IMG/VR virus record: IMGVR_UViG_3300025016_000004
Reading direction: 5' to 3' (one strand)
DNA: 64,000 bases
Origin: a virus
Taxonomy: Duplodnaviria; Caudoviricetes
Shown here: piece by piece, positions 56,722 to 62,076 of the stretch
How the letters are laid out: each line of letters opens with the position of its first letter
Numbering within the stretch: the stretch's first letter is position 1
Made by a program: the position numbers and the translations under genes
The notes under the pieces: generated by a model
Database searches by the model: none
Seen by the model: only the letters and a program-made list of their open reading frames with translations
Told to the model about the DNA's origin: nothing

Positions 56722-57075
56722 TTAATCGTTATCTTTCACAAAAATTCCATCAACCATTTTACCAGTTCTTTTTGAAATTACATTATAAGCTGACTCTAAA
56801 CAATCTTCTATTGTTAAACCTTGTATTTCAGTTTGAATTATTAGTGTTACTAATATATCACCTATTGCATCTTTAATCTCATGTTCAGTGTTTTTTAAAT
56901 TACCTTTAGGACAAGTAAATTCAAGATTACCCCTTTCTTGAGCATTTAATGCCATGGTTAATTCACCAACTTCTTCTAGAGTTTTTGTGTGTTGGCTAAT
57001 TGGTGTGGCTTTATCAAAAATAGTTTTATCTTTAGCCCAATCAATCACTTTTATATTTAATTCTTTAAAATTCAT
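56722..57075 (-). CDS. mazG: MazG-like nucleotide pyrophosphohydrolase
   Basis: KTLEEVGEL, IKDAIGDILVTL, CLESAYNVISKRTGKMVDGIFVK. Confidence 0.82.
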   Translation of the reverse strand: MNFKELNIKVIDWAKDKTIFDKATPISQHTKTLEEVGELTMALNAQERGNLEFTCPKGNLKNTEHEIKDAIGDILVTLIIQTEIQGLTIEDCLESAYNVISKRTGKMVDGIFVKDND

Positions 57076-57679
57076 TTTTTTGTTTTAGTATATTAAGAGG
57101 TAATAACTTCTCTGTTTTTTTTTTATTATTTGACCACACTATTAATTCATCTAAAGTCACTCTACCATTATAATACGCCCATAATGTTGCGTTACCAAAT
57201 TGTTTATGTAACCATCTATGGTCAGATGGTGTTATTAATACTAAATTATTTGGGTCGTTATTATTAATATTACAATCTCTATGGTGGGTAATATACCCTT
57301 CTGGTAATTTATTAATATTTAACGTTTCAAATACAATTTTATGGTGTAACTTTATTCTACCAAATTTAGGTAAATAATCTAATTTATAACCACCGTCAGT
57401 TGTTACGTTTTCCCTAAAATTTGGGTTATTCTCACCTAAATATTCTTTTTTTCTAAAATTAGCAACACATTTAGTTGAACAGAAATAACCTTGACTTCTT
57501 TTATATCTTTTCTTAGAAGACTCTTTTAAATGAAACCCTACACCACATTGAGTACAGGTCGTATTAGGTTTACTTTTCCTAAAATTTGCTGAACACTCAA
57601 TACTACAAGTATGAGCGTTTTTAATTTGCTTCCCATATCTTTTAAATAGTTTACCACATATTTTACATTCTATTTCCAT
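57065..57679 (-). CDS. Free-standing HNH homing endonuclease with N-terminal CxxC zinc motifs
   Basis: CKICG, CSIEC, CTQCG, CSTKC; HHRDCNINNNDPNNL...HRWLH. Confidence 0.85.
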   Translation of the reverse strand: MEIECKICGKLFKRYGKQIKNAHTCSIECSANFRKSKPNTTCTQCGVGFHLKESSKKRYKRSQGYFCSTKCVANFRKKEYLGENNPNFRENVTTDGGYKLDYLPKFGRIKLHHKIVFETLNINKLPEGYITHHRDCNINNNDPNNLVLITPSDHRWLHKQFGNATLWAYYNGRVTLDELIVWSNNKKKTEKLLPLNILKQKNEF

Positions 57680-58807: not shown

Positions 58808-61147
58808 CTACTTTTCAGTGCCAAAAACAAGTTTTTTGTAATATTTAGCACGATTTTCTGTAACTTTATCCATTGAGTAGGTTTCAGCCACAGTATTATA
58901 TAAATTATCCCCAAGTATTTTTATCATCTCAGGGTTTTGTATCAATTTTTTAAGGTATTGATACCATTGTTTATGATTCCTATGAGAATCAACCAATAAA
59001 CCATTTTTAGTTAAATCAATTTCACCACCTTTTTGAAATGCATTTTGAATATCAATTGTATAAGGACCATAATTTTGAGCGATTAACGCCTTTTTATGGA
59101 AACCGCTTTCAATTACCTTTAATTGACTTTTAACTTTATTGAAGGTATGTTCAGTCAACGGTGCTAATGAAATATCAAATAAATTATAATTGGTCGCATA
59201 ATTGGTGATTGGTTTTGTCCAAACTCTTCTGTACGGCTCTTGCATAATGCTAGGGAATTCTTCAGTCACATATCTCAATAAATGCTCTTTATATTCTTTT
59301 GAAATTGTCGTATAATCATTGGTGAATATTTTTTCATATTCACACCAAACTGTTTCGTGTGGTAATATATCTCTTTGAGTTTGTTCACCTGTATCTTTGT
59401 TAATTGAATTAACCTTACCTCTAGTATCAAACCCACATAACACAAATTGTATTTTATCTAATAACCCGTCACCTTTTAATTTAGAAACTAATTGATTTAA
59501 TAATTTTAAATCTGCTAAATGACTATTCCCAATCCAAAATGCTTTACCATTTCGTCTAATATATATTATATGATTTTGAACTTCAACGCAATAAACATTT
59601 CCTTTATAATATTTTTTATATTGGTCATCTGTTTTAATTAAAGGGGTATTTTTATTATGTTTACTAACACTAGGGTGTTTTGTAAAATTAACAACTAATG
59701 AATCAAATTGGTTAGTGATTTTACGGCCTTTAATCATAGACGTTCTTTTACCTCGATTAGTAATGGTGGCTGAAATACCTAATTTTAATGCCATTTCTTG
59801 TAAATCATTGGCTAACGCTGATGAAGAGGTAAAAGCTCTAGTTCTACCATATTTGTTATTTTCAATATGACCATCACCATTAATAAACCATTCTAAAAAT
59901 ATCTTTAATTGCCTAGATGACAAATTTAATATTTCTTTAGGTATAAATTTTTCTGTAGCGGTACCAAAATCAGATAAATAATTCCATAATTGTTTATCAA
60001 AGACTCTCAATTGTTTTTTATCTTTAGTGTATTTTGGGTTAAATCCCATTTTAGTTAACAAATTAAACATATGCTCCAAATAATGATTATCTTTAGATTG
60101 AGCAATACCTACTTGATGTAAACCCTTACTTTTACTAGTCCAACCTTCAGCCATCCAAAAGCCGAAAAACTCTAACCAATCATTCATTTCTATCATAGTA
60201 TCAGTCCCATATTTTTCATATAAATCAACCCCATACTTATTTTTTTTATGTCCTTTTATAAAATTTTCATTATAAGCTTCTTCAAATTCGAACTTTAATT
60301 CAGTATAACTAGCTAAATTAGGTAATATAAAATATTCTACCTCATTACCAATCCAATTAGCATTTTTTCTAACATGAAAATTTTTACCATATATTTTTTC
60401 TGATTGTACTAACCCTAAATTCAATTTTTTATGAGTTAAATTCTTAGCTTCTGATGCGTACATATTATGGTTTGGTGTAACTTCATACTCAATTAACCCA
60501 TTTTTAGCACAATTTAATTCACCATCGAATGGTTCACATATATACCCACTTGGTTTATGATATTCCAAATAATTAGTTTCTGGGTTTAATGTTACTACTT
60601 TTTCAGTCTTATCTAACTCATCAAATCGTTTCCAACCACCATCAGTTAAAATTTCGGTATCTGGAGTCATACAACTCCCACCTAACCAACCAATTCTGAT
60701 TTTATCAGAAGGTTCTGGGTTTGAAGTGTATTGTTTTTCTGTTGGGTCAATAGCATTTGGTAAGACTACAACATTCTTGTTATGTTTTTTAATTTCATTT
60801 GCAAAAATTTCTGTTGTTGTTATAATATTCTCAGCAATTTTTAAATTATTAAGGATTTTTTTATCCAAATCATTATTTTTTATAATATGATATGCTGGGT
60901 GAGTCATATCTGGTAACCAATAATCATCTAAATCCATAACTGTAGGGATTCCTAATGATTTTAATTTTTCTAATAATCCTTCCATTTGGTCATAATTACC
61001 CAAAGCTCTATGATAATGAATTAGGTCGTATTGTTTTAACCAATCGTCATCATGTAATTTTGGCTCATATTCAATATCCACATGAAATTCATCTGGATAT
61101 AATTTTTCTAAATGTAAGTTTGGCTTGGTTGAACGAAAATAGCTCAA
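58808..61147 (-). CDS. GT4-like glycosyltransferase with intein; N-terminal strand lies in another frame (61144-61188)
   Basis: MDLDDYW, LPNAID, IGWLGGS/SH, DISLAPL, FNKVKSQLKVIE. Confidence 0.85.
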   Translation of the reverse strand: MSYFRSTKPNLHLEKLYPDEFHVDIEYEPKLHDDDWLKQYDLIHYHRALGNYDQMEGLLEKLKSLGIPTVMDLDDYWLPDMTHPAYHIIKNNDLDKKILNNLKIAENIITTTEIFANEIKKHNKNVVVLPNAIDPTEKQYTSNPEPSDKIRIGWLGGSCMTPDTEILTDGGWKRFDELDKTEKVVTLNPETNYLEYHKPSGYICEPFDGELNCAKNGLIEYEVTPNHNMYASEAKNLTHKKLNLGLVQSEKIYGKNFHVRKNANWIGNEVEYFILPNLASYTELKFEFEEAYNENFIKGHKKNKYGVDLYEKYGTDTMIEMNDWLEFFGFWMAEGWTSKSKGLHQVGIAQSKDNHYLEHMFNLLTKMGFNPKYTKDKKQLRVFDKQLWNYLSDFGTATEKFIPKEILNLSSRQLKIFLEWFINGDGHIENNKYGRTRAFTSSSALANDLQEMALKLGISATITNRGKRTSMIKGRKITNQFDSLVVNFTKHPSVSKHNKNTPLIKTDDQYKKYYKGNVYCVEVQNHIIYIRRNGKAFWIGNSHLADLKLLNQLVSKLKGDGLLDKIQFVLCGFDTRGKVNSINKDTGEQTQRDILPHETVWCEYEKIFTNDYTTISKEYKEHLLRYVTEEFPSIMQEPYRRVWTKPITNYATNYNLFDISLAPLTEHTFNKVKSQLKVIESGFHKKALIAQNYGPYTIDIQNAFQKGGEIDLTKNGLLVDSHRNHKQWYQYLKKLIQNPEMIKILGDNLYNTVAETYSMDKVTENRAKYYKKLVFGTEK
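59525..60673 (-). mobile_element. LAGLIDADG intein in the glycosyltransferase, 383 aa, penultimate Gly
   Basis: WLGGS|CMTPDTEILTDGGW...VTPNH...GFWMAEG...FINGDG...VYCVEV...WIGN|SHLAD. Confidence 0.9.
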
Positions 61148-61227
61148 CTTACCCCAGTACGGTCTGAAGGGACTACAAGTATCTTCATTTTTTGACCTAC
61201 TGGGGTATCAATTTTGTTTGTTTTCAT
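61144..61227 (-). CDS. Recoded replacement N-terminus of the glycosyltransferase (27 aa, or 14 aa from ATG 61188), out of frame with the gene body
   Basis: MKTNKIDTPVGQKMKILVVPSDRTGVS-stop; body continues (TTG) AGC TAT TTT CGT = SYFR. Confidence 0.75.
   Translation of the reverse strand: MKTNKIDTPVGQKMKILVVPSDRTGVS
61150..61207 (-). other. Strong RNA hairpin starting immediately after the HE stop codon and enclosing the replacement AUG
   Basis: TACCCCAGTA-GGTC ... GACC-G-TACTGGGGTA (14 bp, one bulge) plus inner TGAAG/CTTCA. Confidence 0.75.
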
Positions 61228-61975
61228 AATATTTTATTATTTCGTTTATTAGTTCTGGGTTTCTTTTATAATCACTTTCCCAAATAACTTTACTATTATA
61301 ACCATTTTTTTTCGCTAAGTAAAGCTTTTTATTATCACATAACCAAATTTCTTTGGCTGTTTTACTTTTTTTCTTATGCCAATACTCAGCATTATATTTT
61401 TTTGGGTTACAATGCCAATAATCACCATTATACTCTATTAATAAATTAAATTGTGGGACGTAAATATCAAAAATTTTACTTCCTATTCTATAATTAGGTT
61501 CACAATTAATACCTACTTCACTTAATTTATTTATTATTTCATCTTCAGCTTTAGACCTATTATAACTTTTTAATTCACCATTCATTATCCTTTCTTTCAT
61601 CAACTTACTCATTTTAACCCTAACACCTTCCATTTCACCACTTGCCCATAATTTTTTTTTCATATCACTAAACATTTTTCTATATTTTGGTTTAGACATG
61701 TGATTACTGGTGGAAACCCCTATTTTTGATTTACTTATCTTGTTTTTAGTTTCTTCAGTATGGGTTTTATTATAAAATGGGTTACCAACACCTTTTTGTT
61801 TTTTTAATGAACATTTTTTACATATACCTTTCTTTTTTAAATTTCTAGCTAAATAATATTCTTTTGAGGCTTCAACTAATATTTTATTTTTACATAAATG
61901 GCATTTGTAAAAAGAATACCATTTCTGGTTATCAACATTAAATTTGAAGTGTTTATATTTTTCATTTGATTCCAT
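61208..61975 (-). CDS. Free-standing homing endonuclease, DUF559/Vsr-like
   Basis: SKAEDEI, FDIYVPQFNLLIEYNGDYWHCNP, VIWESDY; N-terminal CHLC/CKKC. Confidence 0.85.
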   Translation of the reverse strand: MESNEKYKHFKFNVDNQKWYSFYKCHLCKNKILVEASKEYYLARNLKKKGICKKCSLKKQKGVGNPFYNKTHTEETKNKISKSKIGVSTSNHMSKPKYRKMFSDMKKKLWASGEMEGVRVKMSKLMKERIMNGELKSYNRSKAEDEIINKLSEVGINCEPNYRIGSKIFDIYVPQFNLLIEYNGDYWHCNPKKYNAEYWHKKKSKTAKEIWLCDNKKLYLAKKNGYNSKVIWESDYKRNPELINEIIKYYENKQN

Positions 61976-62004: not shown

Positions 62005-62076
62005 TTATAAAAAGTTTAAGTATGATACACCTGTTCTGTCACTTGGGACAACTAAGATTTTTATTTTTTTACTCAT
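62005..62076 (-). pseudogene. Displaced original 5' end (stub) of the glycosyltransferase gene
   Basis: MSKKIKILVVPSDRTGVSY then LNFL-stop. Confidence 0.88.

Follow-up and report, generated by a model that had tools for sequence, protein, structure and literature searches.

A probable programmed short translational bypass on a homing-endonuclease cassette in a phage glycosyltransferase gene

The window analysed here is a stretch of 64,000 nucleotides from a virus of the Caudoviricetes (IMG/VR record IMGVR_UViG_3300025016_000004). On its minus strand a glycosyltransferase gene has lost its 5' end. The original end remains as a stub upstream of an endonuclease gene, while a short replacement ORF ends in UGA in a frame other than that of the glycosyltransferase body (Table 1). 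An earlier note, based on the letters alone, had suggested that the ribosome hops over the stop from AGU to AGC with the aid of a hairpin, and this suggestion is favoured by 25 distinct alleles of the gene, that of the window included, by compensatory changes in the hairpin and by the selection acting on the bodies. Judged from these comparisons, the locus probably carries a programmed short translational bypass on a homing-endonuclease cassette, analogous and not homologous to the gene 60/mobA element of phage T4.

Table 1. Features at the interrupted glycosyltransferase gene (window coordinates).
Feature	Coordinates	Strand	Basis or remark
Stub, former start of the glycosyltransferase gene (MSKKIKILVVPSDRTGVSYLNFL*)	62005..62076	-	Cut after GVSY-(TT) by the cassette; native-type codons
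Free-standing homing endonuclease gene, 255 aa	61208..61975	-	NUMOD3 motif and Vsr/MTES_1575-like nuclease domain
Replacement 5' ORF, 27 codons, MKTNKIDTPVGQKMKILVVPSDRTGVS then UGA	61144..61227	-	Start overlaps the endonuclease 3' end
Hairpin, 58 nt	61150..61207	-	Region fold, covariation
Putative take-off codon AGU (Ser)	61147..61149	-	GGU, GGC or AGU take-off in 25 of 25 alleles found
UGA stop immediately following the take-off codon	61144..61146	-	Stop there in 25 of 25 alleles found
Putative landing codon AGC (Ser); decoding would restart at UAU 61141	61142..61144	-	Proposed hop product equals the native sequence
Glycosyltransferase body (GT-B/GT4-like), 778 codons including the landing codon	58808..61144	-	Profile and structure matches
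LAGLIDADG intein inside the glycosyltransferase body	about 60673-59525	-	
Candidate take-off stem-loop	61128..61148	-	GUUGAGC (61148-61142) pairs with GUUCAAC (61134-61128)

Read on the minus strand, the replacement ORF ends with ACT GGG GTA AGT (61149-61147) TGA (61146-61144), and the body frame begins 5 nt beyond AGT, at 61144, with AGC (61144-61142) TAT TTT CGT. Shifting the serine tRNA by these 5 nt, from AGT to AGC, gives TGVSYFRS, which is the sequence of the uninterrupted relatives (PSDRTGVSYFRSTKPNLHLE in the native locus L003) and also agrees with GVSY of the stub; everything the earlier note had stated about the sequence of the two flanking serine codons and the frame holds. Since the A of UGA is also the first base of the landing codon, just 2 nt separate the serine codons, and the untranslated gap in the window would be UG (61146-61145). 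The +1 frame meets a TAA immediately after the take-off codon, and a TTG (61147-61145) overlaps the stop as TTGA. The AUG at 61188, to which the earlier note had drawn attention, lies in the hairpin loop and is not a likely start; the likely one is AUG 61227-61225, 5' of the hairpin, giving the product MKTNKIDTPVGQKMKILVVPSDRTGVS*. No tRNA genes were found within the window, and the junction region had no nucleotide match in 50,697 deposited phage genomes.

At least 25 distinct hop alleles (junction sequences) of the gene were recovered from viral contigs and metagenomes. The scans were anchored on the hairpin arms alone and were blind to what follows; they replaced a pattern that required a stop and was biased towards stops. 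Chance G+C-rich matches in the metagenomes were filtered by composition and by a downstream [FY]R[ST] motif, and the number of alleles is a lower bound. The layout of the replacement ORF is the same in all 25 alleles found: the hairpin is followed by a GGY or AGT take-off codon, an immediate stop (TAA, TGA or TAG), 0-5 more nt, a GGN or AGC landing codon and then [KYFH][FY]RS. Among these alleles the hop would be 5, 6, 8, 9, 10 or 11 nt long, all three frame relations are represented, and skipping of the gap restores the conserved protein sequence at each of these lengths. Take-off and landing codons are synonymous in 24 of the 25, the exception being L054, where AGT is combined with GGC (a first-position G-U). 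Some landings are GGA, at which a tRNA reading GGY would have a third-position mismatch. Most alleles combine GGY with GGN; in the window both codons have changed together, to AGT and AGC. A second, independent 5-nt case is found in L171 (GGT-TA-GGT).

A sample of 80 loci collected by similarity to the body, and thus unbiased with respect to the junction, contained four interrupted genes, all with hairpin and gap. None of the about 70 uninterrupted alleles has a hairpin, a gap or the endonuclease, and a search next to roughly 76 uninterrupted loci likewise found no homologue of the endonuclease. The earlier note had named a relative carrying the endonuclease together with an in-frame junction as evidence against a hop; no relative pairs the endonuclease with an uninterrupted junction, and where the gap is in frame, at 6 or 9 nt, it still opens with a stop. 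The hop alleles are scattered on the gene tree, corresponding to at least eight gains or losses. They may all share one ancestral cassette, so that they do not represent 25 separate inventions and their likeness is partly due to inheritance or homing.

The first base of the hairpin is the one next to the endonuclease stop codon (TGA 61210-61208), and its last base abuts the take-off codon. It consists of an outer stem, TACCCCAGTA/TACTGGGGTA, a middle stem, GGTC/GACC, and further inner stems. The hairpin proposed in the earlier note is real: the 101-nt region 61230-61130 folds at -30 kcal/mol, compared to -16.3 +/- 2.8 kcal/mol for 200 dinucleotide shuffles, none of which was as good (z -4.83). 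The hairpin alone gave -23.5 to -33 kcal/mol in each of the 21 alleles folded. Next to a CCCC/GGGG core one pair alternates between AU, UA and CG, and the closing pair between UA, AU and CG. As MAFFT misaligned the two length classes of the hairpin, pairs were counted by anchors and on two gap-free sub-alignments; 93-95% of the hairpin cells were paired, while slid controls gave 24-45%. The 5' arm encodes a TP(V/L)(G/N)(R/Q)K extension common to all relatives. Covariation at synonymous sites indicates a constraint at the RNA level, with which any role of this peptide as a nascent-chain signal in the exit tunnel would be confounded. The CCCC/GGGG core is invariant in spite of its synonymous sites, which implies that pairing alone is not enough and counts against the reading preferred here. 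The possibility that the hairpin is an intrinsic terminator was rejected, as a terminator scan made no call and no T-run lies behind it.

The body of the gene appears to be needed. Wherever a locus holds the whole ORF it is complete, with 378-423 aa, or about 777 aa when an intein is present, and the bodies of the judged alleles consist of DNA with roughly 30% G+C, yet are intact. The dN/dS ratio among hop-bearing bodies is 0.055-0.45, and 0.055-0.2 for related pairs; these bodies are under purifying selection. In a clade where all members carry the hop, the endonucleases are 57-74% identical at the amino acid level and the bodies 67-78%, with an omega of about 0.11 at a dS of about 1.7. The divergence of the endonuclease thus tracks that of the body, so the gap has been carried through this divergence and is old in the clade. 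The structure predicted for the native relative L003 has a pLDDT of 93.4, and its Foldseek matches include GlgM, MshA and BshA (E 1e-14 to 1e-13). In this model the hop would fall on residue 18, which caps the N-terminus of helix 1 just past strand β1 (residues 5-10) of the N-terminal Rossmann domain. According to the model, a product made from the body alone would therefore miss a core strand.

The endonuclease matches Pfam NUMOD3 (3e-7), MTES_1575 (1.4e-4, which is below the cutoff of that profile) and a PHROG annotated as 'homing endonuclease' (4e-13). It had no Pfam HNH match, and a sequence search of the PDB gave no match. About 15 hop alleles have a homologue immediately 5' of the hairpin, while in about nine the gene is lost or decayed and the hairpin, the hop layout and the body persist; the endonuclease gene of L184 has an internal stop. 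The gene is thus a free-standing homing-endonuclease cassette that is linked to the hop alleles, patchy and decaying. In L083 and L163 the stub is interrupted in the same codon as in the window (TAY T|), so three lineages share the break point. The stub ends are located 7-8 nt beyond the beginning of the codon equivalent to the landing codon, and the break thus adjoins the gap.

We envisage that such a cassette invaded the glycosyltransferase gene, bringing with it a recoded 5' end and leaving the old one as a dead stub. A ribosome would then arrive at AGU, the stop occupying the A site, the peptidyl-tRNA-Ser would release AGU, the mRNA would slide forward by 5 nt and the same tRNA would re-pair on AGC. 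Decoding would restart at UAU to give the native ...PSDRTGVSYFRS... enzyme, for which splicing of the intein would then also be required. The hairpin would be unwound while its 3' arm is translated, and re-zipping as this arm exits the ribosome probably pulls the mRNA forward. In a crude refolding-energy model the refolding gains just -2 to -6 kcal/mol for hops of 5 and 6 nt, a result that depends on where the mRNA is taken to leave the ribosome, here 13 nt 5' of the P site. The inserted bases are probably there to interrupt the recognition site of the endonuclease within a very conserved motif. We infer from the layout that the hop takes place, that the hairpin promotes it, that the endonuclease cleaves uninterrupted alleles and that the gap protects the carrier from its own endonuclease. 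A candidate take-off stem-loop, with a 7-bp stem (-7.1 kcal/mol, z -2.0) that would place the take-off codon and the stop in its 5' side, is not a general feature; similar GGUUAA/UUGACC stems are found downstream in some of the alleles, not in all.

Could the 5 extra nucleotides be an error of sequencing or assembly? For a single metagenomic contig this has some prior plausibility and nothing more, and the earlier note had listed it among its alternatives. Contigs from four separately assembled runs, with depths of 17-79x, are identical over 60950-61350 with zero indels. These are per-run Logan assemblies, which would not show minority variants lacking the 5 nt, and the source sample may be among the runs. 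Within the limits of contigs, their identity rules against an assembly error. With 24 other alleles from unrelated samples having the same kind of gap, the chance of an error is negligible. A further alternative, raised in the earlier note as an inactivating insertion, is that the gene is not functional: the cassette might have broken a dispensable glycosyltransferase, with the gap as a protective lesion and the full-length enzyme never being made. Homing elements can spread even when they are mildly harmful, and the scatter of the hop alleles on the tree means that many invasions could be recent. We nevertheless find an inactive gene unlikely, since every body that could be judged is intact in spite of the low G+C content, omega is low for related pairs, and in the hop-only clade, where endonuclease and body have diverged to the same extent, the gap is old. 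Nor is there any reason why a dead gene should preserve the repeated codon, the stop at the beginning of the gap and the covarying pairs of the hairpin over at least five changes of gap length.

The remaining alternatives accept that an enzyme is made and differ in how. In a two-chain enzyme the 27-aa peptide would end at UGA, the body would be restarted at TTG 61147 and the two pieces would assemble. The TTGA overlap is typical of translational coupling, and T4 39/60 and Aeh1 nrdA are examples of genes that homing endonucleases have split. Re-initiation at this TTG, also put forward in the earlier note, does not hold as a general solution: between the opening of the body frame and 45 nt beyond the landing codon, ATG, GTG and TTG are all missing in 10 of 21 alleles, and in the others the position of the start codon is not conserved. 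The genes of the window show no use of Shine-Dalgarno sequences, and the short piece would, judged by the model, have to provide the core strand β1 in trans. This makes two chains very improbable. Excision or editing of the bases from the mRNA, as in a micro-intron with the hairpin as recognition element, would agree with a conserved structure directly abutting the gap. The hairpin, however, lies wholly upstream of the gap instead of spanning it, and removal of RNA needs neither a repeated codon after the gap nor a stop as its first triplet, both of which are kept in the alleles found. We know of no mechanism that removes 5-11 nt in bacteria or phages and give this possibility as little credence as the two-chain enzyme. 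Conventional recoding, with readthrough of the in-frame gaps and +2/-1 frameshifting for the rest, appears if anything even more remote. The 6- and 9-nt alleles could be passed by readthrough, and an invariant GGGG, which lies 2 nt 5' of the take-off codon and 7 nt 5' of the landing codon, resembles the internal Shine-Dalgarno sequence of the +1 frameshift site in prfB. Three mechanisms would be needed for one conserved layout, readthrough would insert 2-3 residues into the invariant motif PSDRTGVGKFRS, and there is no slippery heptamer. A programmed +1 shift of the prfB type was rejected, as the +1 frame in the window meets TAA at once and the shifts required are +5 to +11. Since Shine-Dalgarno-like motifs were found upstream of only 0-2 of the 39 window genes, it is also doubtful that GGGG acts as in prfB. 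A hop that does not depend on the frame is the only explanation covering all three frame relations.

The element that most resembles the proposed bypass is that of T4 gene 60 and MobA (Huang 1988 and Bonocora 2011, as cited in 10.1101/2022.08.31.505936). There, matched codons and an adjacent stop are combined with a 5' stem-loop thought to drive the forward movement, and the gap blocks cutting by MobA (10.1101/2022.08.31.505936; 10.1101/2024.12.09.627546). In both systems the stop follows directly after the take-off codon, a homing-endonuclease cassette sits in a conserved gene, and the bypass, putative in our case, is found wherever the endonuclease is and is kept after its loss. The gap is 2-8 nt here (for hops of 5-11 nt) while it is 50 nt in T4, and the target is a glycosyltransferase gene instead of that for the large subunit of topoisomerase II. 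The endonuclease is of a NUMOD3 plus Vsr-like type, that of T4 is a MobA-type HNH enzyme. Where T4 has a take-off stem-loop and a Shine-Dalgarno sequence within the gap, the alleles described here have a long hairpin ending at the take-off codon, much larger than the 5' stem-loop of T4, for which we infer a driving role. Furthermore, the nascent chain is just 27 aa long, and the cassette replaces the 5' end of its target, whereas in T4 the protein is split into two subunits. The two elements are not homologous in sequence, and the T4 bypass has been studied experimentally while the present one is proposed from comparative data. A GT-B host gene and a non-HNH endonuclease make it an analogue of the MobA/gene 60 element, not a member.

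Short hops over stop codons have been described in E. coli constructs, where 9 nt specifying one amino acid work at a low level (PMC5009743), and unassisted short hops are low-level there (10.1101/2024.12.09.627546). A high yield at the present junction is thus an assumption. In the synthetic 'stop-hops', as summarised in PMC5009743 (its refs 54 and 598-601), a stop is in the A site and the peptidyl-tRNA re-pairs on a nearby downstream cognate codon independently of the frame. Those are artificial, unstimulated and inefficient, while the present layout is natural, conserved, hairpin-linked and located in a gene that appears to be needed. The same 2016 recoding review states of natural in-frame stop hopping that 'no occurrences are known' (PMC5009743). 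One further, unproven case differs in having a rare UUA sense codon, a Shine-Dalgarno-like element and a proposed regulatory role, and in having no endonuclease cassette. In the mitochondria of Magnusiomyces capitatus, essential genes likewise carry short mobile insertions, termed 'byp', which bypassing renders harmless and whose codon pairs often, not always, match perfectly (Lang 2014, as cited in 10.1101/2022.08.31.505936). According to that account they are 27-55 nt long, GC-cluster-like and present at 81 sites, and the A site is occupied by a sense codon that is otherwise unused; they rely on relaxed mitochondrial translation and have no endonuclease. MobE in Aeh1 nrdA is also a free-standing endonuclease gene inside an ORF with the host gene still working (10.1101/2022.08.31.505936). 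Cassettes that split or re-head genes in this way add or replace terminal coding sequence and leave a stub of the old 5' end, but no recoding is needed there, whereas here a gap containing a stop divides the replacement 5' end from the body.

In phages, T4 gene 60 is the sole programmed bypassing system that has been studied experimentally. A survey from 2022 found only homologues of the T4 gene 60 element and called that cassette unique (10.1101/2022.08.31.505936). No published description of a hop cassette in a glycosyltransferase gene was found. We think it reasonably likely that the alleles form an old mobile family of natural short hops, 5-11 nt in any frame and independent of T4 gene 60, in which an upstream hairpin and a stop in the A site suffice to move the peptidyl-tRNA efficiently to the next matching codon, and in which homing endonucleases use mini-gaps for immunity without changing a conserved motif. 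If this is true, they would constitute a second, unrelated family with a natural series of gap lengths, stops and codon pairs and with a very simple set of signals, namely hairpin, codon, stop and codon. They would also offer a small, mutable system for studying how mRNA that refolds on leaving the ribosome drives the forward slide, an open question in the work on gene 60 (10.1101/2024.12.09.627546), and the link between homing endonucleases and recoding would be a general evolutionary solution. As gene callers label such genes as truncated or as pseudogenes, the enzymes are under-counted in phage metagenomes.

The junction in front of the glycosyltransferase body reads GGG GUA AGU UG AGC UAU UUU CGU, and comparative evidence argues strongly that it is probably decoded by a translational hop, in which the ribosome leaves AGU (61149-61147), passes the UGA stop and lands on AGC (61144-61142). 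Read on the minus strand, the earlier note's account of this junction and of the adjoining hairpin is correct, apart from two details. The short ORF more probably starts at the upstream AUG, 61227, than at the AUG in the loop (61188). Two serine codons do surround the UGA as described, but the stop is not separate from the landing codon; it overlaps AGC.

Features of the glycosyltransferase locus and other elements in the window
Feature	Position	Strand	Remarks
Terminator	62153-62127	minus	After the upstream gene
Stub (old 5' end), 23 codons	62076-62005	minus	MSKKIKILVVPSDRTGVSYLNFL, then stop
Endonuclease gene, 255 aa	61975-61208	minus	Pfam and PHROGs
Sigma-70-like promoter match	61418-61391	minus	11/12; in endonuclease 3' half
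Sigma-70-like promoter match	61323-61295	minus	10/12; in endonuclease 3' half
Short ORF	From AUG 61227; UGA at 61146-61144	minus	MKTNKIDTPVGQKMKILVVPSDRTGVS
Hairpin	61207-61150	minus	First base directly 3' of endonuclease stop; last base directly 5' of AGU
Glycosyltransferase body	From AGC 61144 to 58808	minus	Frame differs from short ORF
LAGLIDADG intein in body	59525-60673	minus	Between GGS and SH; Pfam LAGLIDADG_3, 3e-11
Second, free-standing endonuclease gene	57065-57679	minus	HNH_3, 1.8e-6

Using the first 159 body residues as query, 80 related IMG/VR loci were found. The N-terminus is continuous in related loci, as M(S)KKIKVLVVPSDRTGV[SG][YFK][FY]RS, and four of the 80 are interrupted at the identical codon. 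The nearest relatives share 74-78% identity with the query and display GVSYFRS, GVSYYRS or GVSFFRS; the 5-nt hop, proposed earlier to restore the native frame, is predicted to give GVSYFRS, exactly as in relatives. Modelling of the native relative L003 gave a confident GT-B, GT4-like fold (pLDDT 93.4), with GlgM, MshA and BshA as Foldseek matches (E 1e-14 to 1e-13). In this model strand beta-1 spans residues 5-10 and is followed by a loop (11-16) and by helix 1 from residue 17, so that the hop codon, residue 18, is at the beginning of the helix. A product started in the body alone would leave the N-terminal Rossmann domain without a core strand. With the intein in the body, an active enzyme would require both the hop and protein splicing. 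The alleles of the L083 group, whose body is equally long (777 aa), probably also carry an intein.

Viral contigs and metagenomes were scanned with a pattern anchored on the two hairpin arms alone, and hence blind to the sequence past GGGGT. The matches listed contain at least 25 distinct junction sequences, the window included. Among these, the take-off codon is GGT in 20, GGC in three and AGT in two of 25 junctions, and in all 25 it is directly followed by a stop (TAA, TGA or TAG), then 0-5 bases, a landing codon (GGT, GGC, GGA or AGC) and [KYFH][FY]RS. The hop would be 5 nt in the window (AGT-TG-AGC) and in L171 (GGT-TA-GGT), 6 nt in many alleles, 8 nt in L088, L109, L134 and L163, 9 nt in L135, 10 nt in L107 and 11 nt in the L034 group, and all three frame relations are represented among the listed alleles. 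Their sole constant is a codon repeated on both sides of a gap that begins with a stop, and since this is what a hop requires, the hop fits the constant feature. Serine is the take-off residue in two alleles, the window being the only listed match with AGY at both codons; it also occupies the hop position in the window's close uninterrupted relatives.

The ALTERNATIVES set beside the hop agree less well with these junctions. Reinitiation at the TTG at 61147, by which the body would be made as a separate chain, could apply to the window only and is very improbable, as the body frame near the junction is devoid of ATG, GTG and TTG in 10 of 21 alleles. Excision of the gap bases from the RNA needs neither the repeated codon nor the stop, and we consider it just as improbable. 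Readthrough or frameshifting is also very unlikely: the 5-, 8-, 10- and 11-nt forms are beyond readthrough, no single type of frameshift accounts for every hop length, and the +1 frame of the window runs immediately into TAA. An assembly error had also been raised. The stretch is present in 24 groundwater/aquifer runs, and 60950-61350 is identical with zero indels in separately built contigs (contigs, not raw reads) from four of them (depth 17-79), which excludes an error of one assembly, although the source sample is possibly among these runs.

The hop would take place next to a conserved hairpin. The 101-nt region holding it has a folding energy of -30 kcal/mol, compared with -16.3 ± 2.8 in shuffles (z -4.83), and the hairpin is formed in 21 of 21 alleles folded (-23.5 to -33 kcal/mol; the DNA has 26-37% G+C). 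It is absent from the about 70 uninterrupted alleles examined, and codon choice for SDRTGV is diverse among uninterrupted alleles. The pair beside the CCCC/GGGG core links synonymous third positions of Pro CCN and Thr ACN and is A-U in seven alleles, U-A in 11, C-G in two and mismatched in one. In the 66-nt class the closing pair, which has its 3' base immediately before the take-off codon, is U-A (six), A-U (two) or C-G (two), and in one allele GGTC/GACC has become GATC/GATC. Paired cells amount to 93% and 95% in two gap-free sub-alignments, compared to 24-45% after shifting the partners by 1-3 columns. The core itself is invariant, though partly on synonymous sites. A Shine-Dalgarno-like role of GGGG is doubtful, because the genes of the window phage do without such motifs: GGAG, GAGG or AGGA is found in the 20 nt preceding the start in 0-2 of 39 minus-strand ORFs of at least 120 aa in the window. 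Given also the A/T-rich leaders, initiation seems independent of Shine-Dalgarno pairing. The window has 29.8% G+C, and its stops are TAA (28), TGA (9) and TAG (2). The hairpin was rejected as a terminator by a terminator scan.

Decoding would stall once AGU occupies the P site and UGA the A site. The 15-nt 3' arm would then be in the ribosome, with the 5' arm and inner stems outside, and a forward slip would allow more of the 3' arm to emerge and pair. In a crude refolding calculation, for which the mRNA was taken to leave the ribosome 13 nt before the P site, the gain on hopping is on average -7 kcal/mol (range -1.6 to -17). Hops of 5-6 nt gain little and those of 8-11 nt much; when uninterrupted alleles are given a virtual 6-nt move, the gain is -1.5. 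This hints that re-pairing of the hairpin may match the 'driver' role proposed for the gene 60 5' stem-loop (bioRxiv 10.1101/2024.12.09.627546). A 7-bp stem whose 5' strand contains AGU-UGA (-7.1 kcal/mol, z -2.0) is found in the window and is not general across alleles.

The predicted window hop would be programmed translational bypassing, but outside the gene 60/mobA element. It shares with T4 gene 60/mobA the matched codons, adjacent stop, 5' structure, carriage with a homing endonuclease and a layout retained after endonuclease loss, while host gene, endonuclease family, gap length and architecture differ. A 2016 review describes low-level hops over a stop in E. coli constructs, where 9 nt specify one amino acid, and the review knew of no natural stop-hop (PMC5009743). 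A 2022 survey found gene 60 homologues alone (bioRxiv 10.1101/2022.08.31.505936), and full-text literature searches gave no published description of a glycosyltransferase hop family.

Each of the 21 distinct body ORFs for which the locus is long enough is complete, and dN/dS among hop-bearing bodies is 0.055-0.45 (L093/L122 0.055; L089/L102 0.076; L093/L096 0.117 at dS 1.7). As bodies might have diverged before invasion, the cassette was compared separately. In a clade of hop alleles only (L093, L095, L096 and L139) the endonucleases are 57-74% and the bodies 67-78% identical, and in a wider set the two identities are correlated (r = 0.61). The endonuclease divergence tracks that of the body; the cassette is accordingly old, and it and the gene have diverged together. 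These comparisons indicate that purifying selection on the body continued while the gap was present.

The window endonuclease contains NUMOD3 (3e-7) and a Vsr-like MTES_1575 nuclease match (1.4e-4, under its cutoff) according to Pfam, and its PHROGs annotation is 'homing endonuclease' (4e-13). In about 15 alleles a homologue 42-67% identical to it immediately precedes the hairpin. Two alleles contain remnants, one endonuclease has an internal stop, and about nine alleles have lost the gene and retain hairpin, hop layout and intact body. Relatives with both the endonuclease and an uninterrupted junction were looked for and none was found, and no uninterrupted allele has an endonuclease at 3 kb or less. 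When a tree is built on the first 150 residues, the hop alleles are dispersed between uninterrupted ones, and parsimony gives 14 changes, at least eight of them forced by well-supported branches; the cassette therefore repeatedly moves or is lost. From the promoter matches, which are consensus matches only, the replacement 5' ORF and body could be transcribed independently of the endonuclease. Two uninterrupted alleles, L027 and L043, encode Gly-Val as GGG GTG, making a cassette-type GGGG run, and L027 matches the cassette over the full GAC CGT ACA GGG GTG. Neither has the 5' arm, gap or endonuclease. Partial gene-conversion tracts are one possible explanation, an allele type ancestral to the cassette another.

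Three lineages have stubs, namely the window, the L083 group and L163, and in each the stub breaks off inside the codon after Tyr (TAC TT/, TAT T/, TAT TC/), 7-8 nt beyond where the hop-site codon starts. This shared break therefore places the insertion point beside the gap, and the cut is probably there too. The insert of MobA/gene 60 interrupts the endonuclease recognition site, according to the 2022 preprint (bioRxiv 10.1101/2022.08.31.505936). The position of the break agrees with a like role for the gap, which we infer would give immunity. The L163 stub, about 960 nt upstream of the L163 hairpin, encodes MSKLKKRQSMSDIVTNPFGRKLKVLVVPSDRTGVGY, a cassette-type N-terminal extension, and its region lacks both hairpin (-11 kcal/mol) and gap. 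It may represent a once-invaded allele that lost the gap, became cleavable again and was re-invaded. The sequence after the stub is alike in the window (62003-61985) and L163, A[AG]ACTTTTTA[TC][AT]AAT ... CCATATTTA, which suggests that the cassette has a defined left end; at this position L083 has a terminator-like hairpin instead. The second endonuclease gene of the window is flanked by MazG-like and HD-domain-like genes, as judged by eye from the translations.
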